DNA of 64,000 bases. It comes from Bacteroidales bacterium (GTDB taxonomy: Bacteria; Bacteroidota; Bacteroidia; Bacteroidales; FEN-979). Both the position numbers and the translations under genes were made by a program. A model generated the notes under the pieces. It searched no databases. It had not been told where the DNA came from and saw nothing but the letters and a program-made list of their open reading frames with translations. Shown here piece after piece: positions 12,519-63,581 of this stretch. The stretch's first letter is position 1; every line of letters begins with the position of its first letter. The stretch is taken from positions 4,964,979 to 5,028,978 of the forward strand of contig OY820914.1 of assembly GCA_963682005.1 (NCBI GenBank), read 5' to 3'.

Positions 12519-12538
12519 AAAACTAACTTTAGAATAGA

Positions 12539-46542: not shown

Positions 46543-46583
46543 TAAAAAATGGCCTATCCGGGAACCCGAATAGGCCATTTTTG
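46543..46583. terminator. bidirectional terminator
   Basis: AATGGCCTAT (46548-46557) / ATAGGCCATT (46570-46579) flanked by A- and T-runs. Confidence 0.7.
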
Positions 46584-47645: not shown

Positions 47646-47696
47646 GTTGTTTTACTTTTTATGATATTACTTGGGTTAACAAAGTTATTCTTTTTT

Positions 47697-47768
47697 GATG
47701 CTGGATCCTGGATGCCGGATGCCGGATATTTTATCAATATTTTTATCTAGCATCCAGCATCCGGTATC
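47697..47768. repeat. oligomer-repeat hairpin: (CTGGATS)n arm, AT loop, (CATCCRG)n arm
   Basis: GATGCTGGATCCTGGATGCCGGATGCCGGATA ... TAGCATCCAGCATCCGGTATC; lies between the PFOR stop and the DHOD-like start. Confidence 0.8.
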
Positions 47769-47773
47769 TGAAA

Positions 47774-50700
47774 TCATTTCGAAAAATCCATCTCTGACAT
47801 CCGTTTGTAATTTTTCCATCTGTTGATAGCATTTACCTCCGCTGCTTTAAAAAGGATCTCAGCCTCCGCCGGGAACATTTTCTGCAGGGAAGTATAACGG
47901 ATCTCGCTGTTCAGGAATTCCTGGAATTTTGTCCAGTCGGGTTCTTTTGAATCGAGGAGGAACGGGTTCTTTCCTTCATGCATCAGCAGCGGATTGTAGC
48001 GGTATAATTGCCAGTAACCAGCCTGCACGGCACGATCCATTTCATCCTGGGTTTTACCCATTCCAAGCCTGATACCATGGTTAATACATGGAGCATAAGC
48101 GATGATCAGGGATGGACCATGATATGCTTCAGCTTCTTTCATTGCACGGAACAGCTGGCTGTTATTGGCTCCCATTGCAACCTGTGCGACATACACGTAT
48201 CCGTATGTCATGGCCATGGCACCAAGATCTTTCTTTCCAACTTTTTTCCCTGAAGCAGCAAATTTTGCTACTGCTCCTGCCGGAGTTGATTTAGAGGACT
48301 GTCCTCCTGTATTGGAATAAACTTCTGTATCAAGAACGAGAAGGTTGATATCTTCACCAGATGCAAGGACATGGTCAAGACCGCCATAGCCAATATCGTA
48401 GGCCCAACCGTCTCCGCCAATCACCCATACCGATTTCTTTACAAAATATTGCTTCAATAGGAGGAGTTCCTTTGCCAGGTCATTCTTTTCCTTTTCAAGC
48501 AAGGGGATCATCTTATCGGTTGCGAGCTTTGATTTCTCAGCATCATCCACTCCTTCGATCCATTCCTTGAAGGCGTCCAGGACTGCACTTGACATCAGGT
48601 TTTCCTTGATGGCTACCCGCATTTTCTGAACCATTCTTTTCCGAAGAACGTTAACGCCGGTGACCATTCCAAAGCCATATTCGGCATTGTCTTCAAAAAG
48701 TGAATTCGCCCAGGCCGGTCCTTGTCCATGCTCATTTGTGGTATACGGACTGTAAGGAGCTGTTCCTCCATAAATCGAAGAGCAACCGGTTGCATTGGCG
48801 ATCATCATCCGTTCACCAAATAATTGAGTAATGAGTTTGATATAAGGTGTTTCACCACAACCTCCGCAGGCACCCGAAAACTCAAACAAAGGCTTTACGA
48901 ACTGTGAATTTTTAAAAGTCTTTGAACGCGGGGCAACATCTGGTTTATATGTCACTTTATTGATAACGTAATCCCAATTTTTTGTTTCAACCATCTGTGT
49001 ACCCAGCGGTTTCATTTCAAGCGCTTTCACTTTTGCAGGGCAAACATCCACACAGTTTCCACAACCGGTGCAGTCAAGCACGCTTACCTGGATCCTGAAT
49101 TCAAGACCGGTAAGTTCTTTGCCGATTGCTTTCAGGGTAATCATATCTCCGGCAGCACTGGCTTTTTCTTTCTCATTAAGCAGGAATGGTCTGATCACTG
49201 CGTGAGGACAAACATAAGCACATTGATTGCACTGGATACAATTGCCCGGGATCCATTCTGGCACATTGACAGCAATTCCTCTCTTTTCAAGGACAGTAGT
49301 TCCGGCAGGAAATGTTCCATCTTCTCTACCCAGGAAGGCACTTACAGGGATGTCATCTCCTTTCATGTGGTTGACCTGGTCGAAGATCTGTTTGACAAAA
49401 TCCGATTTTGACGGATCATCAGCCTGAGGCTTTAGCTTGATCTTCGCCCATTCAGCTGGCACATCAATCTTTTCGGCCTCTCCTCCTCGGTCAATGGCCT
49501 GGTAATTCATCGTGACGATATCCTCGCCTTTACGGCCGTAAGTCTTATATACGGCATGTTTCATTTCCTTAACCGCGAGGTCAAATGGAATCACCTCTGA
49601 AACTTTAAAGAATGTTGATTGCATAATGCTGTTGGTCCTGTTCCCAAGGCCTATCTCTTCTGCAATCTTGGTCGCATCAATGATGTAGAAGTTGATCTTG
49701 TGCTCTGCCATGTACTTTTTCATGTGATCTGGCAGCCTCTTAACGGTTTCTTCCGCATTCCATATGCTGTTCAACAGGAAGGTTCCTCCATCTTTAAGCC
49801 CCTTCAACATATCATATTTCTCAAGGTAAGCCGGCACGTGACATGCAACAAAGTCAGGCGTATTGACAAGGTACGGAGAACGGATCGGCATATCTCCAAA
49901 ACGGAGGTGCGACACTGTAATCCCTCCTGATTTCTTTGAATCGTATGCAAAATAAGCCTGTGCATATTTATCGGTAGATTCGCCTATGATCTTGATCGAA
50001 TTCTTGTTTGCCCCAACCGTACCGTCAGATCCGATGCCATAGAATTTCCCCGAGAACGTTCCTTTTGGGTCGGTAACTATTTCCGGGATCAGCGGGAGTG
50101 AATGGAAAGTTACATCATCGATGATGCCAACCGTGAAATGATCTTTCGGCTCCTTCGCCTTCAGGTTGTTATAAACAGAAAGGATCTGTGCCGGAGTGGT
50201 ATCCTTTGAGCTAAGGCCGTATCTTCCGGCCAGGATCATTGGCCTTGAAGACCTGTCGTAGAAAATATCGCGGATATCGAGATAGAGGGGATCATTTGCT
50301 CCCGGCTCTTTTGTCCTGTCAAGAACAGCAATCCTTTTTACAGTGGCAGGAAGGACATTAAAGAAATATTTTGCGGAGAAAGGTCTGTAGAGGTGTACCG
50401 AGATCAAACCAACTTTTTCACCTTTTTCCTTGAGGTAATCGATCACTTCTTTGGTAGTATCAGTGATGGACCCCATGGCAACAATGATATTTTCAGCATC
50501 CGGTTCACCATAATATGTAAAGGGATGGTACTCTCTTCCCGTCAGTTTGGTGATTTCATTCATATATGCTTCAACAATATCAGGGATCGGTTCGTAAAAC
50601 CGGTTCACTGCTTCCTTTGCCTGGAAAAAGATATCGGGGTTCTGGGCTGTTCCGCGGGTCACGGGATGCTCAGGATTGAGCGCCCTGTCGCGGAATTCCT

Positions 50701-51307
50701 GCAAAGCCTTATAATCGATCAGCTTCTCCATATCCTCATTTTTAAAAGCTTCGATCTTTTGTATTTCATGAGAGGAACGGAACCCGTCGAAGAAATGCAG
50801 GAATGGAACTCTTGATTTTATTGCGCTGAGGTGAGCAATGCCTGCAAGGTCCATAATTTCCTGGATGCTTCCACTGGCCAGCATAGCGAAGCCGGTCTGA
50901 CGGGTTGCATAAACATCAGAATGGTCTCCGAAGATCGAAAGAGCATGCGCAGCGACAGTCCTGGCACTAACATGGAATACGGCAGGCAGAAGTTCACCGG
51001 CCATTTTGTACATATTGGGGATCATCAGCAAAAGACCCTGGGAAGCCGTAAACGTCGTTGTGAGCACACCCGCTTGCAGTGAACCATGAACAGCACCTGC
51101 GGCACCGGCTTCTGATTGCATCTCAACAACTTTCACTTCATCACCGAAAATATTTTTCCTGCCATGGGCAGCCCATTCATCAACATTTTCGGCCATATTT
51201 GAGGAAGGAGTGATCGGGTAAATAGCAGCTACTTCACTGAACATATAAGCCATATGTGAAGCTGCCTGGTTACCGTCGCATGTAAGAAAATTTACATTTT
51301 TTTTCAT
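47774..51307 (-). CDS. nifJ: pyruvate:ferredoxin (flavodoxin) oxidoreductase
   Basis: 1177 aa; two 4Fe-4S motifs CIQCNQCAYVCP and CTGCGNCVDVCP; TPP-domain GGDGWAYDIG. Confidence 0.95.
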   Translation of the reverse strand: MKKNVNFLTCDGNQAASHMAYMFSEVAAIYPITPSSNMAENVDEWAAHGRKNIFGDEVKVVEMQSEAGAAGAVHGSLQAGVLTTTFTASQGLLLMIPNMYKMAGELLPAVFHVSARTVAAHALSIFGDHSDVYATRQTGFAMLASGSIQEIMDLAGIAHLSAIKSRVPFLHFFDGFRSSHEIQKIEAFKNEDMEKLIDYKALQEFRDRALNPEHPVTRGTAQNPDIFFQAKEAVNRFYEPIPDIVEAYMNEITKLTGREYHPFTYYGEPDAENIIVAMGSITDTTKEVIDYLKEKGEKVGLISVHLYRPFSAKYFFNVLPATVKRIAVLDRTKEPGANDPLYLDIRDIFYDRSSRPMILAGRYGLSSKDTTPAQILSVYNNLKAKEPKDHFTVGIIDDVTFHSLPLIPEIVTDPKGTFSGKFYGIGSDGTVGANKNSIKIIGESTDKYAQAYFAYDSKKSGGITVSHLRFGDMPIRSPYLVNTPDFVACHVPAYLEKYDMLKGLKDGGTFLLNSIWNAEETVKRLPDHMKKYMAEHKINFYIIDATKIAEEIGLGNRTNSIMQSTFFKVSEVIPFDLAVKEMKHAVYKTYGRKGEDIVTMNYQAIDRGGEAEKIDVPAEWAKIKLKPQADDPSKSDFVKQIFDQVNHMKGDDIPVSAFLGREDGTFPAGTTVLEKRGIAVNVPEWIPGNCIQCNQCAYVCPHAVIRPFLLNEKEKASAAGDMITLKAIGKELTGLEFRIQVSVLDCTGCGNCVDVCPAKVKALEMKPLGTQMVETKNWDYVINKVTYKPDVAPRSKTFKNSQFVKPLFEFSGACGGCGETPYIKLITQLFGERMMIANATGCSSIYGGTAPYSPYTTNEHGQGPAWANSLFEDNAEYGFGMVTGVNVLRKRMVQKMRVAIKENLMSSAVLDAFKEWIEGVDDAEKSKLATDKMIPLLEKEKNDLAKELLLLKQYFVKKSVWVIGGDGWAYDIGYGGLDHVLASGEDINLLVLDTEVYSNTGGQSSKSTPAGAVAKFAASGKKVGKKDLGAMAMTYGYVYVAQVAMGANNSQLFRAMKEAEAYHGPSLIIAYAPCINHGIRLGMGKTQDEMDRAVQAGYWQLYRYNPLLMHEGKNPFLLDSKEPDWTKFQEFLNSEIRYTSLQKMFPAEAEILFKAAEVNAINRWKNYKRMSEMDFSK

Positions 51308-51600
51308 GTGTTATTATTTTAATTTTTAAGGACATATGTCTGCCGGTTGGCAGGCACGGAATATCCCAATGCAAATTATTCAGTTTGAGTGAAAAATTTA
51401 CACTGGATATTTCATAATATACTGATAGTTAAATACCTAAATATCTTTTTGTGAATCGGTTAACAAGCCGCAAAGGTACGATTTCTTTTCATAGCAGAAT
51501 AATTTTTTGCCATTAATTTATCTCGGAAGAGGCCTTGTTATCCAACTGACAAGGACAAGGGACTGGCATTCTTTAACGAACGGTGCTTCCTGTGAATTCA

Positions 51601-51608
51601 TACCTTTG
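51601..51608 (+). promoter_or_regulatory. Bacteroidota -7 box TACCTTTG
   Basis: TAnnTTTG(CA) 15 nt upstream of the mutS2 ATG. Confidence 0.5.
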
Positions 51609-51622
51609 CAAAAATATTCAAT

Positions 51623-53944
51623 ATGGTTTTTCCACCCAATTTTGAACAAAAACTCGGCTTTGACTCCATCCGCCACATCCTGACCGAAAATTGTCTTTGT
51701 CAGCTAGGCAGACAGTATATAAGCGAAATCAGTTTTTCCTCCGATAAAGAGTCCATTTCCTCATCGCTTTTGTTTACCGAGGAATTCCGCAAGGTTTTGT
51801 TGTTTGACGAAGGATTTCCATCGCAGGATTACTATGATATGGTGCAGGAGATCCTGCATATCCGTATTGAGGGAACCTATATGGAACCGGAACGTCTTTC
51901 GGAGCTGAAGCTTTCGCTAGCATCCATCTTTCAGATCATCTCATTCTTCAGGACAAGGTCTGCAGATAAGTATCCTGCATTATTTGCAAAAACTGAAAAC
52001 ATCATCATCGACCCTGCAATCCTGAAGAAGATCGAGAAGATCATTGATGACCGTTCCAATATAAGGGATGACGCATCTCCTGTCCTGAAAAAGATCAGGA
52101 AAGAAAAGGCATCCAAACTGGCCTCTGTGGAAAAAAAGATCGCACAGAGCCTCAAGGCTGCAAGCAAAGCCGGATGGACTCCGGACGATGCAGGAGTCAC
52201 CGTAAGGAACGGAAGGCTTGTGATTCCGTTGTTGGCAAAATTCAAGCGTCAGTTAAGTGGCTTTATTCATGACGAATCCTCAACGGGACAAACCGTATAT
52301 ATGGAACCAGCCGACGTCCTGGAAACGAACAATGAGATAAGAGAACTTGAATATGCAGAAAGACGGGAGATCATCCGGATTCTCATTGAGTTTGCAGACT
52401 TCCTGCGGCCTTTCTGCGATGATCTTCTGCATGCGTACCAGTTTCTTGGATTCATTGATTTTGTGCGTGCAAAAGCATTGTTCGCCATCAGTATTAATGG
52501 CTGCTACCCTTCAAAACTCCTGGATGCACCTTATATCTCCTGGAATGATGCCATCCATCCGTTATTGTACCTCTCCCATTCAAAACAGAACAAGCAGGTT
52601 GTTCCGATGACCTTGTCGCTGAACAGTGGAAACAGGATTCTTGTCATTTCCGGACCGAATGCCGGGGGGAAATCTGTTTGCCTGAAAACGGCGGGGTTGC
52701 TCCAGTATATGCTGCAGTGCGGACTACTCCCGTCCGCCAGGGAAGATTCCGAGTTCGGCATTTTTCATCATCTATTCGTAGATATCGGTGATGAACAGTC
52801 GCTGGAGAATGACCTCAGCACTTACACATCAAAGCTTTTGAACATGAAGTATTTCCTTGAAAACATGGATGCCCGGTCTTTATTCCTTATCGATGAATTC
52901 GGAACTGGTACTGATCCCGGCTTAGGCGGAGCCATGGCTGAAGCTGCACTTATCCGGTTTAATGAAATGAGAGGGTTTGGTGTTGTCACAACACATTATT
53001 CGAACCTGAAGCTCTTAGGAGGAAATGTTGAAGGGATCATAAATGGTGCGATGCTTTTCGATACCCGGAAGATGAAACCCCTCTACCAGCTTAAAACCGG
53101 AAAACCGGGAAGTTCATTTGCCTTTGAGATCGCAAACCAGATAGGCTTTCCGAAAGATGTTCTGAAAAAAGCTTCGGAGCTGACAGGCACCAGGCAGTTG
53201 GATTTTGACCGGCAGATCCAGGAAGTCGAGGTGGAAAAAAATGAATTGGCAAAAAAAACAATGGAAATGAAAGTGGCGGATGAATTCCTCGATGAGATTA
53301 TTAAAAAATACCAGAAGCAGACCGAAGAGCTGGAACGATCCAGGAAGGAGATCCTTGTGAAAGCCCGCGAAGATGCCATGAAATTATTCAATGACACCAA
53401 CCGTCTGATTGAAAAGACCATCAAGGAGATCAGGGAAAGTCAGGCAGATAAAGAAAAGACAAAAAAGCTCAGGGAAGAATTGAATGCTGAGAAGGAAAAG
53501 TTGCAGTTGATGACCGGAGGTCAGAAGTCAGAGGTCAGAAGTCAGCAGTCAACAAACTTAATCCCTTCGACTTCCGACCCCCGACCTCTGATCTCTGAGG
53601 CTAACAGCCAGCATCCAGCATCCGACATCCAGCATCCGGTATCCCGTCCTCCGACTCCCTACCAGGGTTATATAGACGACCTTCACCGTAAGCTGGCCGC
53701 ATTTGAAATGACCCTCGACCTGAGAGGCAACCGTGTGGATGAAGCATTATCCTTATTACAAAGGTATATTGATGATGCGATCATCCTTAACATTTCTGAG
53801 GTCCGGATACTTCATGGCAAGGGTAACGGAGTGCTCCGGCAGGTGACAAAAGATTATCTCAGGTCAGTAAAAGAAGTAAAAAGCCATCACGACGAGGCAC
53901 TGGAACGCGGCGGTCCGGGTGTGACCGTGGTTTCTTTTAAGTAG
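51623..53944 (+). CDS. mutS2: endonuclease MutS2 (Smr domain)
   Basis: Walker A GPNAGGKS, DEFGTGTDP, coiled-coil, C-terminal Smr LDLRGNRVDEAL..ILHGKGNGVLR. Confidence 0.93.
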   Translation: MVFPPNFEQKLGFDSIRHILTENCLCQLGRQYISEISFSSDKESISSSLLFTEEFRKVLLFDEGFPSQDYYDMVQEILHIRIEGTYMEPERLSELKLSLASIFQIISFFRTRSADKYPALFAKTENIIIDPAILKKIEKIIDDRSNIRDDASPVLKKIRKEKASKLASVEKKIAQSLKAASKAGWTPDDAGVTVRNGRLVIPLLAKFKRQLSGFIHDESSTGQTVYMEPADVLETNNEIRELEYAERREIIRILIEFADFLRPFCDDLLHAYQFLGFIDFVRAKALFAISINGCYPSKLLDAPYISWNDAIHPLLYLSHSKQNKQVVPMTLSLNSGNRILVISGPNAGGKSVCLKTAGLLQYMLQCGLLPSAREDSEFGIFHHLFVDIGDEQSLENDLSTYTSKLLNMKYFLENMDARSLFLIDEFGTGTDPGLGGAMAEAALIRFNEMRGFGVVTTHYSNLKLLGGNVEGIINGAMLFDTRKMKPLYQLKTGKPGSSFAFEIANQIGFPKDVLKKASELTGTRQLDFDRQIQEVEVEKNELAKKTMEMKVADEFLDEIIKKYQKQTEELERSRKEILVKAREDAMKLFNDTNRLIEKTIKEIRESQADKEKTKKLREELNAEKEKLQLMTGGQKSEVRSQQSTNLIPSTSDPRPLISEANSQHPASDIQHPVSRPPTPYQGYIDDLHRKLAAFEMTLDLRGNRVDEALSLLQRYIDDAIILNISEVRILHGKGNGVLRQVTKDYLRSVKEVKSHHDEALERGGPGVTVVSFK
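53517..53645 (+). repeat. oligomer-repeat element embedded in frame in mutS2
   Basis: GGTCAGAAGTCAGAGGTCAGAAGTCAG arm, GACTTCCGACCCCCGACCTCTGATC arm, then CAGCATCCAGCATCCGACATCCAGCATCCGGTATC. Encodes GGQKSEVRSQQS...HPASDIQHPVS. Confidence 0.8.
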
Positions 53945-53950
53945 TCCTTT

Positions 53951-54112
53951 AGCTATTGGGTTTTGGCCTTTGGCTTCTTTCATTGGAATCTTGATAACTG
54001 GAAATTTTCATTCCATCACTATCTACATTCAAGGAAACCAACACTAAAATCTACCAGGCTAAAAGCTAACAGCCAAAAGCCAATAGCCAAAAGCCAATAG
54101 CCAATAGCCAAT
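53951..54112. repeat. oligomer-repeat inverted arms (TTGGSYTT / AGCCAAW) with an ~80-nt spacer
   Basis: AGCTATTGGGTTTTGGCCTTTGGCTTC (53951-53977) vs GGCTAAAAGCTAACAGCCAAAAGCCAATAGCCAAAAGCCAATAGCCAATAGCCAAT (54057-54112). Confidence 0.8.
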
Positions 54113-54140
54113 TTAGTTTGTATTTTAATAATTTGAATTG

Positions 54141-54148
54141 TACCTTTG
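54141..54148 (+). promoter_or_regulatory. Bacteroidota -7 box TACCTTTG
   Basis: TAnnTTTG(CA) 23 nt upstream of the ATG at 54171. Confidence 0.5.
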
Positions 54149-54170
54149 CACGTTTTTGAAAAATTGATTT

Positions 54171-55718
54171 ATGAGTTTACGACAAAAATCGAATGAACTG
54201 AAAAGAAGGATGCAGGAAGCCTTCAAAGGTGGTGGCGAACAAGCGACCGAGAAGCAGAAAGCATCGGGTAAAATGACGGCCAGGGAAAGGATCCTTGCGC
54301 TCCTTGATCCCAACACTTTTCATGAGTATGATCTTTTTGTCAAGCATGCAGGCGTTGATTTTGAGATGGATAAGAAATACCTTCCGGGGGATGGTGTAAT
54401 TACAGGGACCGGTTCAATAAACGGATGGCCTGTTTGCATTTTCGCCCAGGATTTCACTGTCGCAGGTGGTTCTTTAGGGTATATGCATGCGAAGAAAATT
54501 TCGAAGATCATGGACCATGCCATGAAAATGAAGGTTCCTTTGATCGGTATCAATGATTCAGGTGGCGCCCGTATCCAGGAAGGGGTTAATTCACTGGCCG
54601 GATATGGAGAAATATTTTATAGAAACACCCAGGCTTCCGGTGTGATCCCGCAAATTTCGGTGATCCTTGGCCCCTGTGCAGGCGGGGCAGTGTATTCCCC
54701 TGCTTTGACGGATTTTGTATTTGTGGTGGACAAAATATCCAAGATGTTCATTACAGGCCCTGAAGTGATAAAGACAGTTCTCGGCGAAGAGATATCCATG
54801 GAAGACCTTGGAGGTGCGCGCGTACATGCCGAAATTACCGGGAATGCCCACTTCTTTGCTGAAAGCGAGGCTGAATGTTTTGAGCAGATCAAACAGCTTG
54901 TCAGTTTCATTCCATGGAACAATGAGAAGAAAGCCGAAACGTTCCCGAAAAAGGCACCAAAGTCGAGAAATTTCAAGATCGATCAGATCTTCCCTACAAA
55001 TCATATGGAGTCTTATGATGTCAGGGGAGTCATTAAAGCCATCGTGGATGATTCGGAATTCTTTGAAGTGCATGAACACTGGGCACAAAATATTATCATA
55101 GGTTTTGCAAGGCTTGACGGGCAAACCGTAGGTTTTGTTGCAAATCAGCCCATGGTGCTTGCTGGCGTACTGGATGTGGACTCCTCCGACAAGGCCGCCC
55201 GTTTTATCCGTTACTGCGACGCCTTCAATATTCCGCTTGTTACCCTCGTTGACCTTCCGGGATACCTCCCTGGCGTGGACCAGGAGCATGCCGGTGTTAT
55301 CCGTCATGGTGCTAAAGTACTTTATGCCTATTCAGAGGCCACCGTTCCAAAACTGACGGTTATCCTGAGAAAAGCTTATGGCGGAGGATACATTGCCATG
55401 TGCTCGCATCATCTGAGGGCTGATTTTGTCTTTGCCTGGCCAACTGCTGAAATTGCAGTCATGGGACCCGAAGGCGCAGCGAACATTATTTTCAGGAATG
55501 AGATCAAATCCTCTGAAAATCCTGAAGAGACCCGTAAGAAACTTATCGAGGACTACCGTACAAAATTTGCGAACCCTTATGTTGCTGCCGCATACGGTTA
55601 CGTCGATGCTGTTATAGAACCGAATGAAACCAGGAATTTTCTGATCCATTCCCTCAATATTGCCACCCATAAACGCGAACCAGTCCCATTCAAAAAACAC
55701 GGTATTCCCCCATTCTGA
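54171..55718 (+). CDS. acyl-CoA carboxyltransferase (methylmalonyl-CoA decarboxylase alpha / propionyl-CoA carboxylase beta type)
   Basis: KMTARERILALLDPNTFHEYD, GGARIQEG, typical 515-aa carboxyl transferase. Confidence 0.9.
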   Translation: MSLRQKSNELKRRMQEAFKGGGEQATEKQKASGKMTARERILALLDPNTFHEYDLFVKHAGVDFEMDKKYLPGDGVITGTGSINGWPVCIFAQDFTVAGGSLGYMHAKKISKIMDHAMKMKVPLIGINDSGGARIQEGVNSLAGYGEIFYRNTQASGVIPQISVILGPCAGGAVYSPALTDFVFVVDKISKMFITGPEVIKTVLGEEISMEDLGGARVHAEITGNAHFFAESEAECFEQIKQLVSFIPWNNEKKAETFPKKAPKSRNFKIDQIFPTNHMESYDVRGVIKAIVDDSEFFEVHEHWAQNIIIGFARLDGQTVGFVANQPMVLAGVLDVDSSDKAARFIRYCDAFNIPLVTLVDLPGYLPGVDQEHAGVIRHGAKVLYAYSEATVPKLTVILRKAYGGGYIAMCSHHLRADFVFAWPTAEIAVMGPEGAANIIFRNEIKSSENPEETRKKLIEDYRTKFANPYVAAAYGYVDAVIEPNETRNFLIHSLNIATHKREPVPFKKHGIPPF

Positions 55719-55782
55719 TCAGAAACAGCCTGAATAAACATCCGAAAATTATTAACCAGGAAGATCCATAAATACAATTTCC

Positions 55783-56109
55783 ATGGAGAATGAAGAACCC
55801 AAGCCTGAATTGCACATATTCAACTTTGAAAATGTTGAATACAAGACGCGGTACACGAAAAAATTTGAAAACAGAAAACCCTATACTATCCCGGATCCCA
55901 AAAAGATCTATGCTTTTATCCCTGGCCAGATCCTGAAAGTTTTCGTCAAAGAGGGACATAAGGTTAAGAAAGGCGACCCATTACTCATTCTTCAGGCGAT
56001 GAAAATGAACAATATCCTGTTAGCACCCATTAATGGTGTCATAAAAACAATCTATGTAAAAGTCGGGGAAACCGTTCCAAAATCTCAAATGCTTGTGGAA
56101 CTGAAGTAG
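55783..56109 (+). CDS. biotin carboxyl carrier (biotinyl-lipoyl domain) protein
   Basis: Biotinylation motif LQAMKMNN. Confidence 0.85.
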   Translation: MENEEPKPELHIFNFENVEYKTRYTKKFENRKPYTIPDPKKIYAFIPGQILKVFVKEGHKVKKGDPLLILQAMKMNNILLAPINGVIKTIYVKVGETVPKSQMLVELK

Positions 56110-56137
56110 AAAATATTTCAGGATTCAATTAATATGT

Positions 56138-56145
56138 ATATCTTT
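56138..56145 (+). promoter_or_regulatory. Bacteroidota -7 box TATCTTTG
   Basis: TAnnTTTG(CA) upstream of rpsT. Confidence 0.45.
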
Positions 56146-56211
56146 GCACACTTTTTTGAAATTCCTGCATTAAAATAAAACATATAACACAGTTAAGAAA
56201 AAATCAGAGAA

Positions 56212-56475
56212 ATGGCAAACCATAAATCATCAGAAAAACGCATCCGTTCTACCAAAACAAAACAAAAACTGAATAAATATCAGGGAAAAACCGTTCGTAA
56301 TGCGATTAAAACGATACGGGCAACAGACGACAAGGCAGAATTTGTAAAGAATCTCCCTGCAGTCATTTCCAAAGTTGACAAATTAGCCAAGAAGAGCGTT
56401 ATTCATAAGAACAAAGCGTCAAACCTCAAGTCAAAGCTGATGAAAAAAGCCAATGCTGAAAAGGCTCAGGCTTAA
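56212..56475 (+). CDS. rpsT: 30S ribosomal protein S20
   Basis: [25 protein letters not shown]-terminus, 87 aa, basic. Confidence 0.93.
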
Positions 56476-56626
56476 TCTTTAGTTAAAGGTATTTCATTTT
56501 CAGGCACCACTGGTCCTGCAGCAGTTCATAAGAATGCTGTATGTCCGGTGGTGTTCTTTTTTGTAATTTTGTTTCGGCTCCAATCTTTGTACTGCGGGTC
56601 CCTGGCTAAAAGTTTATGAATGTAGG

Positions 56627-56668
56627 TTTTTTACTTTTGATTTTTCACTTTTGACTTTTGACTTTTTC
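56627..56668. repeat. tandem CTTTTGA-type oligomer array
   Basis: TTTTTACTTTTGATTTTTCACTTTTGACTTTTGACTTTTTC directly upstream of the ATG at 56670. Confidence 0.7.
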
Positions 56669-56669
56669 A

Positions 56670-57551
56670 ATGACTGAATCCCGGGAAATATCCGAACACT
56701 TCATCGACACGGAAAAATTATTCCGGGATAAAAATCCCAGGCTGCACAGGCTAATCCCGGGCTTTCTGTTTCGTATGCTCCGAAGGCTCATTCATGAGGA
56801 TTTTATTAATACGATGATCTATAAGCACCGGGATAAAACAGGGTTGGCTTTTGTATCATCAGTTATTGAGGATTTTGGAGTTAAAATAGAGGTCTTCCGT
56901 TCATCATCACAAAAATTTTCAGCCGGTAATCCTCATCATAGTGTGACAAATGATCTTTTCCCTTCATCGGGAAGATACATTATTGCAGCCAACCATCCTC
57001 TCGGAGGACTCGACGGACTGGCTCTTATCGAAACAGCTGGCAAGATCAGGCCCGATATCATCTTTCCGGTCAATGACCTTCTTATGTATGTTCCCGGACT
57101 CAAACCTTTGTTCATTCCCATAAACAAGCACGGGAGAAACACTGAAAACGTACAGATCATTGATGAAACATTTGCCGGGGAAAAGCTGATCCTTTTCTTT
57201 CCTGCAGGACTTGTATCCCGCAAGCAAGGGAAAAATATCAAAGATCTTGAATGGAAGAAAACCTTCATCACCAGGGCAAAAAAATATCAGAGGGACATTA
57301 TTCCGGTCTATATCTCCGGACAGAATTCCGGGTTCTTTTACAACCTCTCAAACTGGAGAAGAAGATTGAGAATAAAAGCAAATATCGAAATGCTTTTCCT
57401 TCCTGATGAAATGGTTAAACAAAAAGATAAAACGATCACCATTGTTTTTGGCGATCCGATCCCGTATACCCTGTTCGACAAAACAAAAACGGATCAACAA
57501 TGGGCTGAAGTGATTAAAAAGAAGGTATATAAAATGGGAAAACTTGTATGA
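56670..57551 (+). CDS. lysophospholipid/1-acyl-glycerol-3-phosphate acyltransferase-family protein (GlsA/OlsA-like)
   Basis: HX4D motif NHPLGGLDG; ATG at 56670 preferred over the tracked non-ATG start. Confidence 0.7.
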   Translation: MTESREISEHFIDTEKLFRDKNPRLHRLIPGFLFRMLRRLIHEDFINTMIYKHRDKTGLAFVSSVIEDFGVKIEVFRSSSQKFSAGNPHHSVTNDLFPSSGRYIIAANHPLGGLDGLALIETAGKIRPDIIFPVNDLLMYVPGLKPLFIPINKHGRNTENVQIIDETFAGEKLILFFPAGLVSRKQGKNIKDLEWKKTFITRAKKYQRDIIPVYISGQNSGFFYNLSNWRRRLRIKANIEMLFLPDEMVKQKDKTITIVFGDPIPYTLFDKTKTDQQWAEVIKKKVYKMGKLV

Positions 57552-57574
57552 GGATTTTATTGTAATTTTGGGCT

Positions 57575-57668
57575 CATTGATGAGGTGATGAGGTGATGAG
57601 GTGAAAGATAATTGGCTATGTGACTTGATCACTCCATCACTTCATCACTTCATCACTCCATCACTTGA
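57575..57668. repeat. oligomer-repeat hairpin (GATGAGGT)x3 / (TCACTYCA)n
   Basis: TCATTGATGAGGTGATGAGGTGATGAGGTGA ... TCACTCCATCACTTCATCACTTCATCACTCCATCACTTGA. Confidence 0.85.
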
Positions 57669-57708
57669 AAATCATCAAGCAAAATATGAATAGTGCGTTT
57701 TGAGAAGT

Positions 57709-58680
57709 ATGGAGACCATTATACCACCGGTAGACACGAGATTGCTGGAAAATGAGCTTGGCGATCATAAGTTCGTCCGTAATACGAATAATGGGAACAA
57801 TAAGATCTATATGTTCACCGCACACGAATCTCCGAACCTCATGCGGGAAGTCGGCCGGTTACGGGAGATCACGTTCCGGGATGCCGGTGGCGGAACAGGC
57901 AAGGCTGTGGATATTGACGAATTTGACCTTGCTTCCAAGCCATTCCATCAACTTATAGTCTGGAATCCGAAGGAAAAAGAAATTGTCGGAGGATACCGCT
58001 TTATCCTGGGGAAAGATATTCCCTGCGACCAGAAAGGCTGTCTTAACAGCGCAACAGCCGAACTTTTCAGTTTCTCTGAAAAATTCGTTCGCGATTACCT
58101 GCTGAATTCAATAGAACTTGGACGATCCTTTGTCCAGCCCGAATACCAGCCAACCGTCAACCTGAAAAAAGGGCTCTATTCACTCGATAACCTTTGGGAT
58201 GGCCTCGGAGCAATGATCATCGATTATTCTGAAGTAAAGTATTTTTTCGGAAAAATGACCATGTTCCCGGATTATAATAAAACCGCCCGGGATATCATCC
58301 TGTTTTTCCTTGCAAAATACTTTCCTGACCGCGAAAATCTCCTCACCCCGATATACCCGATATTAGCAGAAACCGACAGAGAAGTACTTTCAGGTATTTT
58401 TTCCGGCCTGACTTATGAAGAGAATTATAAGATCCTGATCCACGAGATCAGAAAGCACAATGAGCACATTCCTCCGCTTGTAAATGCGTACATGAATTTA
58501 TCACCGACGATGAGGACATTTGGCACCTCGTTAAACGCCGAGTTTGGTAATGTGGAAGAAACCGGCATCATGATCAATATTGAAGACATCTACCAGCGAA
58601 AAAAAGAACGGCACCTCGCTTCCTATATTCGAAGGATCTCTTCACTGACCAACCTGAAACTAAGAAGAAAAAGAGGATGA
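57709..58680 (+). CDS. GNAT-family N-acyltransferase ('hemolysin'-like; GlsB/OlsB-like lipoamino-acid synthase)
   Basis: REVGRLREITFRDAGGGTGK..DIDEFD pattern typical of OlsB/GlsB-type proteins; next to the acyltransferase. Confidence 0.65.
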   Translation: METIIPPVDTRLLENELGDHKFVRNTNNGNNKIYMFTAHESPNLMREVGRLREITFRDAGGGTGKAVDIDEFDLASKPFHQLIVWNPKEKEIVGGYRFILGKDIPCDQKGCLNSATAELFSFSEKFVRDYLLNSIELGRSFVQPEYQPTVNLKKGLYSLDNLWDGLGAMIIDYSEVKYFFGKMTMFPDYNKTARDIILFFLAKYFPDRENLLTPIYPILAETDREVLSGIFSGLTYEENYKILIHEIRKHNEHIPPLVNAYMNLSPTMRTFGTSLNAEFGNVEETGIMINIEDIYQRKKERHLASYIRRISSLTNLKLRRKRG

Positions 58681-59279
58681 ACCTGATAAAAGCAGAATTT
58701 ATTACCAGCTCCGCAAACCTGAAATCTTGCCCGCCGATGAATACACCGGAATTTGCTTTCATCGGTCGCTCCAATGTTGGAAAATCATCCCTGATCAACT
58801 TCATCACCAACCGGAAAAAGCTGGCCAAAGTTTCTCAAACTCCTGGCAAGACCAGGCTCATCAATCATTTCCTTATCAATGATCAGTGGTACCTTGTCGA
58901 TCTGCCCGGCTATGGATTTGCAAGATTATCCAGATCTGAAAGAGAAAGCCTTGAAAAACTGATCTACAGCTATTTTTCCGAAAGGAAGAATATCGAACAC
59001 ACCTTTGTTCTTGTCGATTCAAGACTGGAACCACAGGTAAATGACATTTCATTCATGGCCTGGCTGGCTTCCAGGAAGATCGGGTTCACTATCGTTTTTA
59101 CGAAATCTGACAAGCTCTCCAAAGGGAAGCTTGCAAAAAACATGACCCATTATATGACTTATCTTACAGAATTCCGGCCATATGCAACAGAGATCATTCC
59201 ATCCTCTATCCTCGATCATTCAGGGAAAGAGGAGATACTGGAAGTCATTGCAAACTATCTTGATGAGCCATCTTCTTAA
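58677..59279 (+). CDS. engB: ribosome biogenesis GTPase YsxC/EngB
   Basis: GRSNVGKSSLIN, DLPGYG, TKSDK. Confidence 0.9.
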   Translation: MNLIKAEFITSSANLKSCPPMNTPEFAFIGRSNVGKSSLINFITNRKKLAKVSQTPGKTRLINHFLINDQWYLVDLPGYGFARLSRSERESLEKLIYSYFSERKNIEHTFVLVDSRLEPQVNDISFMAWLASRKIGFTIVFTKSDKLSKGKLAKNMTHYMTYLTEFRPYATEIIPSSILDHSGKEEILEVIANYLDEPSS

Positions 59280-59301
59280 CGAATAAATCCTATTCCTGAT
59301 T

Positions 59302-60354
59302 ATGAAAATTGTTTCAATAGTCGGTGCACGCCCCCAGTTCATCAAAGCCGCCACCGTCTCCCGTTTCTTTCGGTCAAACCCTGACATCCGGGATATCCTG
59401 GTTCATACAGGGCAACACTATGATAAAAACATGTCTGATGTTTTTTTTTCAGAGCTTGATATTCCGGAACCGGATTATAATCTTGGTGTCGGTTCCGGTA
59501 GTCATGCGGATCAGACAGGCAAAATGATGGTAAAGATCGAGGATCTCCTTCTAAAGGAAAAACCGGACTGGACTCTTGTTTACGGCGATACGAATTCGAC
59601 CATTGCCGGAAGCCTGACGGCTGTAAAACTTCATATACCCGTTGCCCACATAGAATCAGGCCTGCGCAGCTTCAACCGCAGGATGCCCGAGGAGATCAAC
59701 CGGATCATCACCGACAGGATCTCCGACCTGCTCTTTGCTCCTACCCTGACGGCCATGAAGAACCTTGAAACTGATGGTTTGAAAAACATTTCAGTATTCA
59801 CCGGCGATGTTATGTATGATTCCATTCTATTCTACCAGAAGCTGATCGCTGAACATGAAGAAAAATACAGGACACCGGGCATTCCGGCACAGTACCTGCT
59901 GGCCACGGTCCATCGTGCAGAAAACACCGATAACCCCGGAAATATAAGCCAGATCTTTGAAGCCTTCTCGGGAGCGGGATATCCTGTTGTATTCCCTGTT
60001 CATCCGCGAACAAGGAAGATCCTTAAAACTATGCGGGCATTCCCGAAAAATGTAATCGTGATCGATCCTGTGGGGTACCTCGAAATGTTGAAGCTTATCA
60101 TGGATTCAACGAAAGTGCTCACCGATTCAGGCGGACTCCAGAAAGAGGCGTATTTCCTGGGAAAGCAATGCATTACCTTGCGCACTGAAACGGAATGGAT
60201 TGAAACTGTCCATGATGGATGGAATACCATTACAGGTACCGACAAGGAACAAATCCTGGCTGCGATCCGGTCTCCCCTTCCTTCTGCACCGCGCAAAAAT
60301 GAATTCGGGGATGGAAAAGCAACTGAAATTATCGTGAACAACCTTTTAAAATAA
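59302..60354 (+). CDS. wecB: UDP-N-acetylglucosamine 2-epimerase (non-hydrolysing)
   Basis: GARPQFIK, HTGQHYD, GDTNST, EEINR, SDSGGLQKEA. Confidence 0.9.
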   Translation: MKIVSIVGARPQFIKAATVSRFFRSNPDIRDILVHTGQHYDKNMSDVFFSELDIPEPDYNLGVGSGSHADQTGKMMVKIEDLLLKEKPDWTLVYGDTNSTIAGSLTAVKLHIPVAHIESGLRSFNRRMPEEINRIITDRISDLLFAPTLTAMKNLETDGLKNISVFTGDVMYDSILFYQKLIAEHEEKYRTPGIPAQYLLATVHRAENTDNPGNISQIFEAFSGAGYPVVFPVHPRTRKILKTMRAFPKNVIVIDPVGYLEMLKLIMDSTKVLTDSGGLQKEAYFLGKQCITLRTETEWIETVHDGWNTITGTDKEQILAAIRSPLPSAPRKNEFGDGKATEIIVNNLLK

Positions 60355-60465
60355 CCACCAGGATGCCAATACGCAAAAAAATTTGCGAATCAATTTCTTA
60401 GCATCTTTGCAGTGGAAAAGAGGATATCAAAAATCTAAACATACTTTCTTTGAATCACCTGTTTA

Positions 60466-60999
60466 ATGGATCATTCGAAAAAAAAAATCCCCATTAAAAG
60501 TTGGTATCCCGTTTATACCACCCCTCGGGCTGAAAAGAAAGTTCATGCCCGGTTGCAGGAGAAAGGGATCGAATCCTATTTGCCCCTGCAACGGGTTTTG
60601 AAGCAATGGACCGATCGCAAAAAATGGGTGGAAGAACCTTTTTTCCGTTCATATGTATTCGTCCATATCAATATTCTGGACCAGGCCAGCATCCTCCAGG
60701 TCCCGGGCGTCGTGCGTTTCATCTATTTCTCAGGAAAACCTGCAGCCATCAGGGACGACCAGGTAAGATTGCTGAAAATACTGACAACATCCAATGAACA
60801 TTTTATCGCTACACAAGAGGCATTCGGGGTTGGGGAATCTGTTGAAATCACAGGCGGTCCTTTTGCAGGTTTTACCGGCGAACTCATTGCATGTAAAGGA
60901 CAACGGTTGCTGATCATCAGGCTTACCGAGATCAATTATAACCTCCTGCTTGAGATCGACCCTGCATTGGTGAAAAAGAAAACTACTGGTGAGAGATAA
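60466..60999 (+). CDS. UpxY-family (NusG-like) transcription antiterminator
   Basis: WYPVYTTPRAEKKV..LQEKGIESYLPL, KOW-like GESVEITGGPFAGFTGEL; heads a polysaccharide locus. Confidence 0.85.
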   Translation: MDHSKKKIPIKSWYPVYTTPRAEKKVHARLQEKGIESYLPLQRVLKQWTDRKKWVEEPFFRSYVFVHINILDQASILQVPGVVRFIYFSGKPAAIRDDQVRLLKILTTSNEHFIATQEAFGVGESVEITGGPFAGFTGELIACKGQRLLIIRLTEINYNLLLEIDPALVKKKTTGER

Positions 61000-61022
61000 G
61001 AAGTGAGATATGAAGGGTCTAA

Positions 61023-61090
61023 TGACCCTGTGACCCTGTGACCCTGTGACCTTGTGACTTGGTGACCAGGTGACTTTGTGACCTTGTGGC
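61023..61090. repeat. tandem 8-mer array TGACCYTG x ~8.5
   Basis: TGACCCTG x3, TGACCTTG, TGACTTGG, TGACCAGG, TGACTTTG, TGACCTTG. Flanked by GTGAGATATG / CATCATCTCAC. Confidence 0.9.
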
Positions 61091-61158
61091 CCAATCACCA
61101 TCATCTCACAAATTTTTCCTAAATTGCGCCACGATTTTAAGCTTCATTTACCATTAAT

Positions 61159-61188
61159 TGTTCACTATTCACTTTTCACTATTCACTG
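61159..61188. repeat. tandem TTCACTATTCACT x2
   Basis: Ends 6 nt upstream of the ATG at 61194. Confidence 0.75.
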
Positions 61189-61193
61189 ATAAC

Positions 61194-62489
61194 ATGAGTA
61201 TTTACGAAAAATTATTAAAGAAAGAAACCAAATTATCCGTGATCGGATTAGGTTATGTCGGGTTACCGATTGCATTGGAATTCGCACGGAAGATCTCCGT
61301 TGTTGGGTTTGATATTAAAGAAGACCGCGTTCAGCTGATGCGGAAAAAGATTGACCCCAGTGAAGAACTGCCAACGGAGGCCTTTGAAGGCTGTGACATT
61401 GTTTATACAAGCAATCCGGCTGATTTGAAGGATTGTACCTTTCACATTGTGGCTGTTCCGACTCCGGTTGATAAGCACAACCTTCCTGACCTGAGTCCTT
61501 TGATCGCGGCAACCCGGACTGTCGGAAAGATCCTGAAGAAGGGCGACTATGTCGTTTATGAGTCAACGGTTTATCCCGGAGCTACAGAAGAAGATTGTGT
61601 TCCGGTGCTTGAAGAATTATCAGGATTGAAGTTCAATGCCGATTTTAAAGTCGGATTCTCACCGGAAAGGATCAATCCTGGTGACAGGGAACATACCCTG
61701 ACTACCGTAGTAAAGATTGTTTCCGGCTCCGATGCAGAGTCGCTCGAACAGGTAGCCAAAACATATGAACTTGTTGTTAAAGCCGGGGTTCACAGGGCAC
61801 CGACGATCAAGGTGGCTGAAGCCGCTAAAATCATCGAGAATTCGCAGCGTGATATCAATATTGCCTTCATGAACGAGCTTTCCCTTATTTTTGGAAGAAT
61901 GGGGATCAATATTTATGATGTAATCGATGCTGCAGCCACGAAATGGAACTTTCTGAAATTCTATCCCGGTTTGGTTGGAGGCCATTGCATTGGTGTCGAT
62001 CCATATTACCTGACCTATAAAGCGGAAGAATACCGGTATCACGCAAGGGTGATCAATGCAGGTCGTTATGTAAATGATTCAATGGGGTTTTATGTGGCGA
62101 AACAAACGGTAAAAAAGCTGATATTTGCAGAAAAGAACGTACTGAAGGCCAAGGTGCTGGTCATGGGTGCAACCTTTAAGGAAAATGTAAGCGATATCCG
62201 TAATTCGCGGGTTGCAGATCTCATTAATGAGCTGAAATCTTATGGCATTCAAGTCGATATAGTTGACCCCTACGCCGATAGCAAGGAACTGATGCATGAA
62301 TACGGATTCGGACTGACAACCAAACTCCGCAATGATTATGATGCCGTTGTCGTTGCTGTAAGTCATAAGCCATACCTTGACCTGGATGAAACCTATTTCA
62401 CATCAATAACCAAAGATAAAGGCATCCTGATCGATGTCAAAGGACTTTACAGGAAGAAGGTGAAAAGTATGATCTATTGGAGCCTTTAG
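61194..62489 (+). CDS. nucleotide-sugar dehydrogenase (UDP-ManNAc / UDP-GlcNAc 6-dehydrogenase type)
   Basis: VIGLGYVGLP Rossmann, catalytic GGHCIGVDPYY. Confidence 0.85.
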   Translation: MSIYEKLLKKETKLSVIGLGYVGLPIALEFARKISVVGFDIKEDRVQLMRKKIDPSEELPTEAFEGCDIVYTSNPADLKDCTFHIVAVPTPVDKHNLPDLSPLIAATRTVGKILKKGDYVVYESTVYPGATEEDCVPVLEELSGLKFNADFKVGFSPERINPGDREHTLTTVVKIVSGSDAESLEQVAKTYELVVKAGVHRAPTIKVAEAAKIIENSQRDINIAFMNELSLIFGRMGINIYDVIDAAATKWNFLKFYPGLVGGHCIGVDPYYLTYKAEEYRYHARVINAGRYVNDSMGFYVAKQTVKKLIFAEKNVLKAKVLVMGATFKENVSDIRNSRVADLINELKSYGIQVDIVDPYADSKELMHEYGFGLTTKLRNDYDAVVVAVSHKPYLDLDETYFTSITKDKGILIDVKGLYRKKVKSMIYWSL

Positions 62490-62490
62490 G

Positions 62491-62584
62491 AGGTGGTGAA
62501 CTGGTGAACTGGTGAGTTGGTGAGTGATTAAAGGTCAAAGGTCAGATTATCATAATTCATAATTCAAACTCATAATTCATAATT
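62491..62584. repeat. three adjacent oligomer arrays: (GGTGARYT)x4, (AAGGTCA)x2, (CATAATT)n
   Basis: GGTGGTGAACTGGTGAACTGGTGAGTTGGTGAGTG; AAGGTCAAAGGTCA; CATAATTCATAATTCAAACTCATAATTCATAATT. Confidence 0.85.
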
Positions 62585-62586
62585 AA

Positions 62587-63579: not shown

Positions 63580-63581
63580 TG

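Follow-up and report, generated by a model that had tools for sequence, protein, structure and literature searches.

The closest described counterparts of the repeats analysed here are the short tandemly repeated repetitive (STRR) sequences of heterocystous cyanobacteria, heptamers reportedly described by Mazel et al. in 1990, whose canonical units STRR1-3 are CCCCAGT, TTGGTCA, and CAACAGT. We analysed a 64,000-nucleotide stretch of contig OY820914.1 from an uncultured Bacteroidales bacterium (hereafter the “window”), in which arrays of 7-8-nt units lie between and within conserved housekeeping genes. These arrays probably represent an STRR-like dispersed family, which is lineage-specific and tied to stem-loop cassettes that carry a PF05635 gene and resemble the intervening sequences (IVSs) of 23S rRNA. 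In Bacteroidales, Flavobacteriales, and Cyanobacteria, arrays are physically and evolutionarily coupled to PF05635 genes. The STRRs and the window family have in common tandem 7-nt units at many, mostly intergenic loci, unit families specific to each genome, frequent stem-loops, and an obscure function. The likeness had been pointed out in the initial annotation of the window, and it extends to the layout of inverted heptamer arms, since arms of the same type bracket PF05635 genes in the Nostocales (Nostoc, Calothrix, Anabaena, Aulosira, and Tolypothrix). In contrast to the STRRs, the window family resides in the Bacteroidales, commonly uses 8-nt and occasionally 9-nt units, and has in-frame copies in conserved genes; its units in the window genome are not those of STRR1-3, although TGACCYTG and AAGGTCA resemble STRR2.

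PF05635 comprises the Avd-like four-helix-bundle proteins encoded in 23S rRNA IVSs. To our knowledge, its only understood relative is Avd, the accessory protein of diversity-generating retroelements, and the sole context in which the family was understood to occur was the IVS of 23S rRNA. PF05635 genes have been noted earlier in cas loci and rRNA insertions (PMC3936711; bioRxiv 10.1101/2024.02.27.582315). In the Coxiella 23S IVS, a 28-bp stem is cut by RNase III, and three strain-variable GACAGAT heptamers precede the S23p open reading frame (ORF) (PMC4990558). The IVSs of Leptospira and Coxiella resemble the array cassettes in their inverted-repeat stem, the PF05635 (S23p) ORF in the loop, the tandem GACAGAT heptamers in a purine-rich 5′ arm, and the short ORF-less versions found alongside (PMC4990558). 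However, IVSs occupy 23S helices 9, 25, or 45 and their excision by RNase III was shown by experiment, whereas the array cassettes lie between or inside protein genes and their cleavage is proposed by analogy. All copies in the window genome are located between or within protein-coding genes, not in 23S rRNA helices, and an Rfam 15 scan found no rRNA in the window.

Heptamer arrays have also been described outside the heterocystous cyanobacteria. Xanthomonas genomes contain abundant paired convergent GGGAATC arrays of unknown function, and GGGGAYT repeats occur in Nostoc (Rehm 2015, PMC4692102). These arrays are likewise intergenic, 70-75 inverted pairs of Xanthomonas can form stem-loops, close relatives differ in array length and sequence, and transcription was reported for most arrays (PMC4692102). 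Each Xanthomonas genome is dominated by one G-quadruplex-prone unit, whereas the window family uses many; the text of Rehm et al. 2015 (PMC4692102) does not mention S23, and it reports no link to PF05635. TAACTGA and other heptamer repeats were reported from Beggiatoaceae, cyanobacteria, and five Bacteroidetes (MacGregor 2015, PMC4679880), which supplements the initial annotation, where no description of such arrays from Bacteroidota was known. These direct repeats are also mostly intergenic, often end a few nucleotides before a start codon, and are distributed patchily over the same phyla. In contrast to our analysis, MacGregor 2015 followed a single unit with essentially no inverted pairs and did not examine PF05635. 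A link between heptamer arrays in general and PF05635 cassettes was not found in the literature that we searched, which is no proof of novelty.

Two types of dispersed palindromes also invite comparison. Repetitive extragenic palindromic (REP) sequences, bacterial interspersed mosaic elements (BIMEs), REP doublets (REPINs), and the RAYT genes were reportedly described by Nunvar in 2010 and by Bertels and Rainey in 2011, and the flanking of the RAYT gene by inverted REP copies is said to have been the clue that linked the two. As in the window family, these hairpins are intergenic, often just past genes, and mosaic, and the associated gene is flanked by inverted copies of the element. However, REPs are 20-40-nt imperfect palindromes in hundreds of near-identical copies, not tandem 7-8-mers, and RAYT is a Y1 transposase with known chemistry, while no enzymatic activity is known for the small helical bundle of PF05635. 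In the array family, units recur and modules are mosaic, but the flanked gene belongs to PF05635; no search for RAYT genes was made. The Rickettsia palindromic elements, reportedly described by Ogata et al. in 2000, are hairpin repeats that lie in frame in conserved protein genes and add a tolerated peptide loop, as the arrays do in the ATPase domain and linker of MutS2; they differ in being 100-150-bp elements of fixed sequence, not 7-8-mer arrays.

Our dataset comprised 162 sequences (2.45 Mb), namely the window and related loci, with about 20 kb sampled per genome; individual sequences are denoted by handles such as L056. A carboxyltransferase scan with one genome per GTDB species provided 80 syntenic loci, all from uncultured Bacteroidales, some of which are labelled Prolixibacteraceae or Draconibacterium, and a metagenome scan provided 80 more. 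Every array listed in the initial annotation was reported at its coordinates by Tandem Repeats Finder (TRF) and was read in the sequence. Among the TRF rows with at least three copies, 353 have period 7 and 85 have period 8, as compared to 2 with period 6 and 18 with period 9, while block-shuffled copies of the 2.45 Mb yielded one row in all. The arrays thus greatly exceed the shuffled expectation, and these 353 + 85 rows are long simple sequence repeats (SSRs) with 5-11-nt units in the sense of Mrazek 2007.

The arrays are coupled to PF05635 genes. A jackhmmer search over the 160 related loci detected 25 of these genes, of which 23 belong to the array-rich loci (576 kb) and 2 to the array-poor ones (1779 kb; Fisher test over loci, p = 1e-8). 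An array lies no more than 200 nt away from 22 of the 23 genes in the array-rich loci, and an inverted complementary pair surrounds 13 of the 23, as compared to 5 of the 402 remaining genes of these loci (p = 4e-15, odds ratio 103); one further PF05635 gene has 9-nt arms. A presence/absence pair is provided by L056 and L059, where a 488-nt segment, the cassette with its arms, composed of (GTTGTAA)n, a 122-aa ORF, and (AACTTAC)n, replaces a 15-nt spacer. The contig L162 from ENA, which is 99.98% identical to window 52587-64000, carries the same arrays, and extends the window by 9.6 kb, contains a further octamer pair 2.5 kb past the window end. This pair brackets a PF05635 ORF (L162 13914-14291; E = 1.8e-35, with a weak bAvd match), which may be N-terminally truncated. 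Both arms of the window hairpin at 57575-57668 align with the arms of this cassette (L162 13902-13922 and 14292-14347), about 9 kb apart in the same genome, and the unit ATCACTYC occurs at both sites (57.63 kb and, in window-equivalent coordinates, about 66.9 kb). In addition, the syntenic genome L191 has a complete PF05635 cassette in the spacer orthologous to window 60999-61194, which holds the TGACCYTG array in the window. PF05635 itself is a family with thousands of members in a protein search.

The coupling is also found in other bacterial groups. A tblastn search of 72,556 plasmids with a PF05635 protein matched 40 records, nearly all of them from cyanobacteria, in addition to Riemerella; they comprise Nostoc (16), Calothrix, Aulosira, Trichormus, Tolypothrix, Scytonema, Anabaena, several non-heterocystous cyanobacteria, and Riemerella. 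In the fetched plasmid regions, a 7-8-nt array lies beside the gene in 16 of 16 cases and inverted pairs are present in 14 of 16, the G-rich arm leading in each of them. The 102-kb Riemerella record contains no strong heptamer array other than the pair around its PF05635 gene, and a 50-kb stretch of a Picosynechococcus plasmid, where the gene lies between cmr3 and cas10, contains no period 7-9 array other than the PF05635 arms. Since these array-poor replicons have arrays solely at the PF05635 gene, the arms come with the gene. Homologues of the PF05635 protein of the window genome (57-77% identity) revealed eleven further contexts with flanking arrays, including Acetobacteroides, Kaistella, several metagenome-assembled genomes (MAGs), and L191, most with arms of the (GTGATGRR) type. 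In a set of 37 cassettes, the more alike the proteins are, the more alike are the arms (Spearman r = 0.23; p = 0.0005 by permutation), and the 4-mer Jaccard index of the arms is 0.40 for pairs above 60% protein identity but 0.03 for those below 45%.

Several features of these cassettes deserve mention in their own right. PF05635 cassettes occur in CRISPR-cas operons of Anabaena sp. 90 (plasmid pANA02, cas6-cas4; L172) and of the Picosynechococcus PCC 7003 plasmid (cmr3-cas10; L177/L184). The left arm in Anabaena sp. 90 is a (GGTGACA/GGGAACA) array of about 270 nt, and a polysaccharide locus (L189/L190) has very long arms beside PF05635 genes, (GATGAAGT) with 27 copies and (GTTTCAGG) with 53 copies over 408 nt. 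Many close homologues lie on contigs of 550-1000 bp that are barely longer than the gene, and one of 929 bp (L192) starts within the left arm, which fits short-read assemblies breaking in the flanking arrays.

How are the arrays related to one another? Arrays more than 1 kb apart in the same genome have an identical unit in 9.2% of pairs, as compared to 0.7% between genomes, a 13-fold difference. The constant architecture and changing unit described in the initial annotation are confirmed, but the units at different loci are not independent of one another. Three loci of L047 (3429-3582, 5656-5756, and 9243-9319) carry, in both orientations, the composite module (GGGTTTCA)n-(CTATTGC)n with the identical junction ‘attgcctgttttggtttcag’, a mosaic arrangement like that of BIMEs. 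In the window genome, the unit CATCCRG appears at 47.75 and 53.63 kb, and the 18-nt string catccagcatccggtatc is common to the 53604-53644 array and the right arm of the hairpin at 47750-47769. Units and composite junctions thus recur within a genome, and their identity across loci indicates that modules were copied, not merely grown in place.

The arrays take two forms, namely inverted pairs, which make stems of 25-35 bp right behind stop codons, and solo arrays, G-poor and unstructured, which adjoin a start codon. The polarity of the inverted pairs is fixed, the 5′ arm being the G-rich one. Among the 43 inverted pairs in the related loci, whose loop lengths are bimodal (5-35 nt or about 350-600 nt), 28 have the G-rich arm on the left and 6 on the right (p = 2e-4). 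It also comes first in all of the plasmid cassettes and in the four window hairpins, and the rule is strand-symmetric, as transcription of either strand would place the G-rich arm at the 5′ end. The 180 distinct units are enriched in GTGA, GGTGA, GTGAC, and GTCA (z = 4.6-7.5): GTGA occurs in 36 units versus 12 expected (z = 7.5), and GGTGA in 15 versus 3.6 expected, so the shared GGTGA/TCACC core that had been suggested is real. Type IIS sites (FokI, HphI, or those of the AlwI-type enzyme encoded in the window) were considered as a source of the GGATG/GGTGA cores, but this idea was dropped because the cut distances do not produce a period of 7-8 nt and the diversity of the units is too great. 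Selection of the G-rich arrays behind genes for stop codons in all three frames is not supported either, since 58 of 108 units have a stop triplet versus 57.3 ± 4 after shuffling.

In the window, four loci form long stems with complementary array arms (z from -3.7 to -6.7 against dinucleotide shuffles), in agreement with the hairpins proposed initially. The stem-loop at 47692-47773 is 4 nt away from the pyruvate:ferredoxin oxidoreductase (PFOR) stop codon (gene 47774-51307, minus) and precedes the start of the dihydroorotate dehydrogenase (DHODH)-like gene (46632-47645, minus) by about 50 nt; its fold (47690-47775) reaches -33.4 kcal/mol on the minus and -37.2 kcal/mol on the plus strand (z = -6.3 and -6.7). 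The hairpin inside MutS2 (fold of 53512-53602) reaches -35.4 kcal/mol (z = -3.7). The stem-loop at 53951-54112 (fold of 53945-54120, -46.8 kcal/mol, z = -3.9) has a loop of about 65 nt, begins 7 nt past the stop codon of MutS2, and is followed downstream by the conserved promoter box (TAnnTTTG type) of the carboxyltransferase gene (54171-55718). The fourth fold (57570-57672) reaches -44.3 kcal/mol (z = -5.5). In contrast, essentially no structure is predicted for the three arrays whose last nucleotide lies 1-5 nt in front of a start codon (z ≥ 0, minimum free energy 0 to -2.4 kcal/mol): the CTTTTGA array ends 1 nt before ATG 56670 of an acyltransferase gene (-2.4 kcal/mol, z = +0.8), and the TTCACTA array ends 5 nt before ATG 61194 of the UDP-glucose dehydrogenase gene (0 kcal/mol). 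Nested inverted cassette arms around this last gene (TGACCYTG and TTCACTA versus GGTGAACT and AAGGTCA) were considered and rejected, because the GTGA/GTCA cores present throughout the family explain the complementarity and the polarity would be reversed.

The arrays had been described as intergenic. However, two arrays had been missed (53517-53551 and 53604-53644), and both lie in frame inside ORF 51623-53944 (773 aa); as this ORF encodes MutS_V and Smr domains in a single frame, it is MutS2, and the family is therefore not purely intergenic. Blastn alignments to relatives are interrupted at about 53455-53660. At least 12 related genomes also have in-frame MutS2 arrays, and the alignment of MutS2 orthologues shows that the array-encoded residues are lineage-specific insertions at three sites. 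Several of these insertions are hairpin pairs, they are retained solely in frame, and those in the ATPase domain (20-30 additional residues) are limited to one clade. The in-frame cases in MutS2 are solid. Over the whole dataset, 270 of 413 arrays (65%) lie in the non-coding 25% of the sequence, genes being defined as ORFs conserved between loci, and with this filter 115 of the 413 fall in coding sequence, which is an upper bound. A first ORF-based estimate was discarded as too high, because stop-free arrays yield spurious ORFs.

The ATPase-domain array pairs lie between the NLKLLA and GIINGAMLFD motifs (L115 8617-8699, L117 6844-6949, L119 4088-4181, and L056 8840-8910). The unit GTCAGRA of the MutS2 insertion at 53517-53551 equals the left-arm unit GTCAGGA of the PF05635 cassettes on Nostoc punctiforme and Aulosira plasmids (GTCAGGA-type left arms at L170 649-680 and L178 651-680), and similar purine-rich units recur between phyla, such as GACAGAT of the Coxiella IVS.

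The array trait is clade-specific. Array density ranges from 0 to 2 per kb and follows the carboxyltransferase tree: about 60 outgroup loci (80-84% identity) are essentially array-free, most ingroup clades have 0.2-2 arrays/kb, and one ingroup clade of 17 loci has nearly none. The closest relative of the window, L002, has no arrays in 14 kb of syntenic DNA. In the native DNA of the window genome, TRF finds 13 arrays in about 37 kb (window plus L162 extension), and dozens of related genomes carry arrays, so the family extends well beyond the 15-kb stretch in which it was noticed. The 160 related loci include no conspecific of the window genome, the best match having 95% amino-acid and 70-80% nucleotide identity, and exact-protein look-ups returned only identical copies of it (L081, L162, and L163). 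As for the proposal that arrays mark native versus foreign DNA, the conjugative element at 1-36.7 kb is indeed array-free. However, TRF finds no period 7-8 array with at least three copies anywhere in window 1-47.6 kb, and the 11 kb of native DNA at 36.8-47.7 kb are as empty as the element; the arrays are consistent with such a marker, but a weak one.

Taken together, the coupling, the recurrence, and the polarity suggest the following scheme. The basic module is a G-rich array, a loop, and a complementary C-rich array, forming a 25-35-bp stem, and the complete module holds a PF05635 gene in the loop, which gives it the architecture of the ORF-bearing 23S rRNA IVSs. The window hairpins would then be gene-less copies, and the solo arrays half-modules or spin-offs. 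Modules may have spread by copying within a genome, while slippage may have altered array length. Selection would keep modules only where they are tolerated, namely after stop codons, before start codons provided that they are poor in G and lack structure, and, as long as the reading frame is kept, in disordered protein loops. Bacterial RNase III cuts long perfect duplexes, and the transcribed long stems could be cut by it, as the 23S IVS stems are; the cut stems would then serve as sites of mRNA processing or insulation, not as terminators.

Several points weigh against this scheme. RNase III cleavage of the array stems is extrapolated from the work on rRNA IVSs. The stem is more stable on the sense strand in 20 cases and on the antisense strand in 12 (p = 0.57), and stem stability does not distinguish selection at the RNA level from selection at the DNA level. 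The inverted arms recall miniature inverted-repeat transposable elements, but no target-site duplication is seen at L056/L059, the sole filled/empty pair, and no mobility enzyme or transposase was identified with the cassettes. Part of the co-divergence of arms and proteins stems from orthologous cassettes of related genomes. The window itself contains no PF05635 gene, and a search for PF05635 remnants in its empty loops found none (all E > 1), the only marginal match being in L041 (E = 0.08); descent of these loops from full cassettes therefore has to be argued solely from shared arm sequences. Finally, arrays outnumber PF05635 genes by about 16:1 (413 versus 25).

A bolder proposal, to which we give only tentative credence, is that the arrays and the PF05635 gene make up a self-propagating element of a class not recognised before. 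The pentamer of the Avd-like PF05635 protein would recognise the repeat arms of its own cassette and help to copy or maintain them, in the way that RAYT does for REPINs, and the gene-less hairpins and solo arrays would be non-autonomous progeny.

Alternatively, polymerase slippage with a 7-nt bias might have generated the arrays in place as neutral SSRs, their proximity to PF05635 genes being incidental because both occupy permissive spacers. Slippage was proposed for the heptanucleotide SSRs, the commonest class of long SSRs in many bacteria (Mrazek 2007, as relayed in PMC4679880; PMC4692102), and copy number does vary, both between orthologous arrays (4.7 versus 4.4 and 6.6 versus 4.9 in L016 and L055) and between Coxiella strains. 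The even distribution of arrays over spacers, with 0.13 per co-directional, 0.13 per convergent, and 0.12 per divergent spacer, also suits this explanation, as do the retention of arrays within genes only in frame in variable loops and the presence of different units in the same spacer of different genomes; for instance, nearly every genome has its own unit in the spacer upstream of the carboxyltransferase gene, followed by the conserved box ‘tacctttgcac’. However, slippage predicts neither the G-first polarity nor the GTGA core enrichment, and it is difficult to reconcile with the identical units and composite junctions at unlinked loci of one genome, the enrichment of inverted pairs at PF05635 genes (odds ratio 103), the arm sequences that follow the protein phylogeny, and the otherwise array-free replicons whose arrays form a pair around a PF05635 gene. 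We therefore regard slippage alone as unlikely.

Less probable still is that the arrays are dedicated host regulators, with the hairpins acting as terminators, attenuators, or mRNA stabilisers and the G-poor arrays as leaders or sites for RNA-binding proteins. Translation initiation in Bacteroidota proceeds without Shine-Dalgarno pairing, which unstructured, G-poor leaders would suit, and the start-adjacent arrays are indeed unstructured, with 12% G and ATG in 1 of 38 units. The hairpins begin a few nucleotides from stop codons; many arrays start between -8 and +5 nt from the stop codon, many overlap it, and others end a few nucleotides before a start codon. The stop-adjacent arrays contain 25% G versus 13% C on the sense strand. 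Heptamer deletion alters reporter expression in Nostoc (bioRxiv 10.1101/2022.06.06.494920), and a translational role was proposed for the TAACTGA repeats (PMC4679880). Nevertheless, the terminator function suggested in the initial annotation is not supported: no array hairpin is followed by a T-run, the terminator scan, which looks for a short-loop GC hairpin with a T-run, reported none of them, and divergent spacers are as array-rich as convergent ones. A classical bidirectional terminator, a hairpin with T/A-runs, lies at 46545-46582 between the convergent S49 peptidase and DHODH-like genes, which shows that intrinsic terminators of the ordinary type are in use in the window genome besides the array hairpins. 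Moreover, arrays turn over wholesale between relatives, the sister genome lacks them across the same operons, arrays occur inside coding sequence as well, and an Rfam 15 scan of the window found no match at the arrays, only two tRNAs at 36.8-37.1 kb.

A metagenome assembly artefact has a negligible chance of being the explanation, for although arrays interrupt the short-read contigs (at window 61052 and 62558), identical arrays are present in the long-read-style ENA contig and in an independent short-read Logan assembly of the same sample (L081, 100% identical), and arrays of this kind occur in over 80 independent MAGs as well as in the finished genomes of Nostoc, Anabaena, Kaistella, and Riemerella.

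The coordinates of the features are collected in Table 1. Comparison of window 59302-60354 with L162 6716-7769 reveals two single-base gaps, by which the UDP-GlcNAc 2-epimerase gene is split into two ORFs in L162; this is probably a long-read indel error in one assembly. Window 1-36700, which has no 7-8-nt arrays, is an integrative conjugative or mobilisable element; L164 extends it 5.8 kb leftward, and a second integrase lies to the left of the window. The element includes an RHS/SpvB/FG-GAP toxin-like gene (24409-30471, minus; 2020 aa) with a 399-bp tandem repeat at 28226-29316 (2.8 copies, 79% match). A direct repeat of about 100 bp flanks this gene on both sides (23141-23240 and 30730-30829); the repeat is composed of a 22-mer (2.9 copies) and a 14-mer (2.3 copies).

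Table 1. Arrays, stem-loops, insertion sites, and neighbouring genes (window coordinates unless a locus is named)
Feature	Coordinates	Strand	Remarks
G-rich arm GATGCYG/GATCCTG, 4.4 copies	47697-47727		TRF and sequence reading
C-rich arm CATCCRG, about 3 copies	47750-47770		complement of the 47697-47727 arm; strict reverse-complement partner
Gene-less stem-loop	47692-47773	.	loop 22 nt
Array GTCAGAR, 4.6 copies	53517-53551	+	in frame in MutS2; TRF
Array hairpin in MutS2 linker	53517-53600	+	G-rich 5′ arm; complementary arm ~53567-53600
Solo C-rich array CCAGCAT/CATCCRG, 4.3 copies	53604-53644	+	in frame in MutS2; TRF
Gene-less stem-loop	53951-54112	+	G-rich arm TTGGSYTT 53951-53980; C-rich arm AGCCAAW 54044-54112, 6-7 copies
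Solo G-poor array CTTTTGA, 5.6 copies	56627-56669 (TRF 56628-56669)	+	unstructured
Gene-less stem-loop	57575-57668	+	G-rich arm 57578-57604, 3.4 copies, unit TGATGAGG (TRF) or GATGAGGT; C-rich arm ATCACTYC 57623-57665, 4.8 copies
Solo array TGACCYTG, 8.8 copies	61023-61092	+	24 nt past stop codon of NusG-like gene; TRF
Solo G-poor array TTCACTA, 3.9 copies	61159-61188 (TRF 61161-61187)	+	
Three successive arrays occupying entire spacer	62490-62584	+	TRF; fold z = 0.08
Array GGTGARYT, 4.4 copies	62490-62524		immediately after stop codon 62487-62489
Array AAGGTCA, 2.1 copies	62530-62544		middle array of the 62490-62584 spacer
Array CATAATT, 5.1 copies	62550-62584		ends 2 nt before ATG 62587
MutS2 insertion site 1			N-terminal loop
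MutS2 insertion site 2			20-30 aa within ATPase domain; L056, L115, L117, L119
MutS2 insertion site 3			linker before Smr domain; window, L029, L041, L076, L119
Long arms in L189/L190	4776-4991 and 7550-7957		
Neighbouring housekeeping genes, conserved order, part 1			S49 peptidase, DHODH-like, PFOR, MutS2
Neighbouring genes, part 2			carboxyltransferase, biotin carboxyl carrier protein (BCCP), S20; two acyltransferases, GTPase, UDP-GlcNAc 2-epimerase
Neighbouring genes, part 3			NusG-like, UDP-glucose dehydrogenase, epimerase
Type IV secretion system (T4SS) coupling protein	6124-7587		
ArdC	8906-9889		
SMC-like ATPase	9927-12587	minus	
AlwI-type restriction enzyme	12539-14239	minus	
IS66 transposase	21319-22779		
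ThiF/DUF6791 gene	31209-32375		
Tyrosine integrase	35266-36699		adjoins two tRNA genes, 36836-36920 and 37012-37084

Heptamer repeats have been known since 1990, and their origin and function have remained unexplained; the coupling to PF05635 provides a testable handle on both. With the coupling, the co-divergence, and the polarity rule found in three bacterial groups, two puzzles of function merge into one hypothesis. The arrays also have practical consequences, since they break short-read assemblies at operon spacers, which bears on MAG quality, and insert peptide loops in conserved proteins such as MutS2, which bears on annotation. If the arrays and their PF05635 gene do constitute a self-propagating element, one mechanism would account for the cyanobacterial STRRs, the ORF-bearing IVSs of 23S rRNA, and the arrays of Bacteroidota and Xanthomonas.

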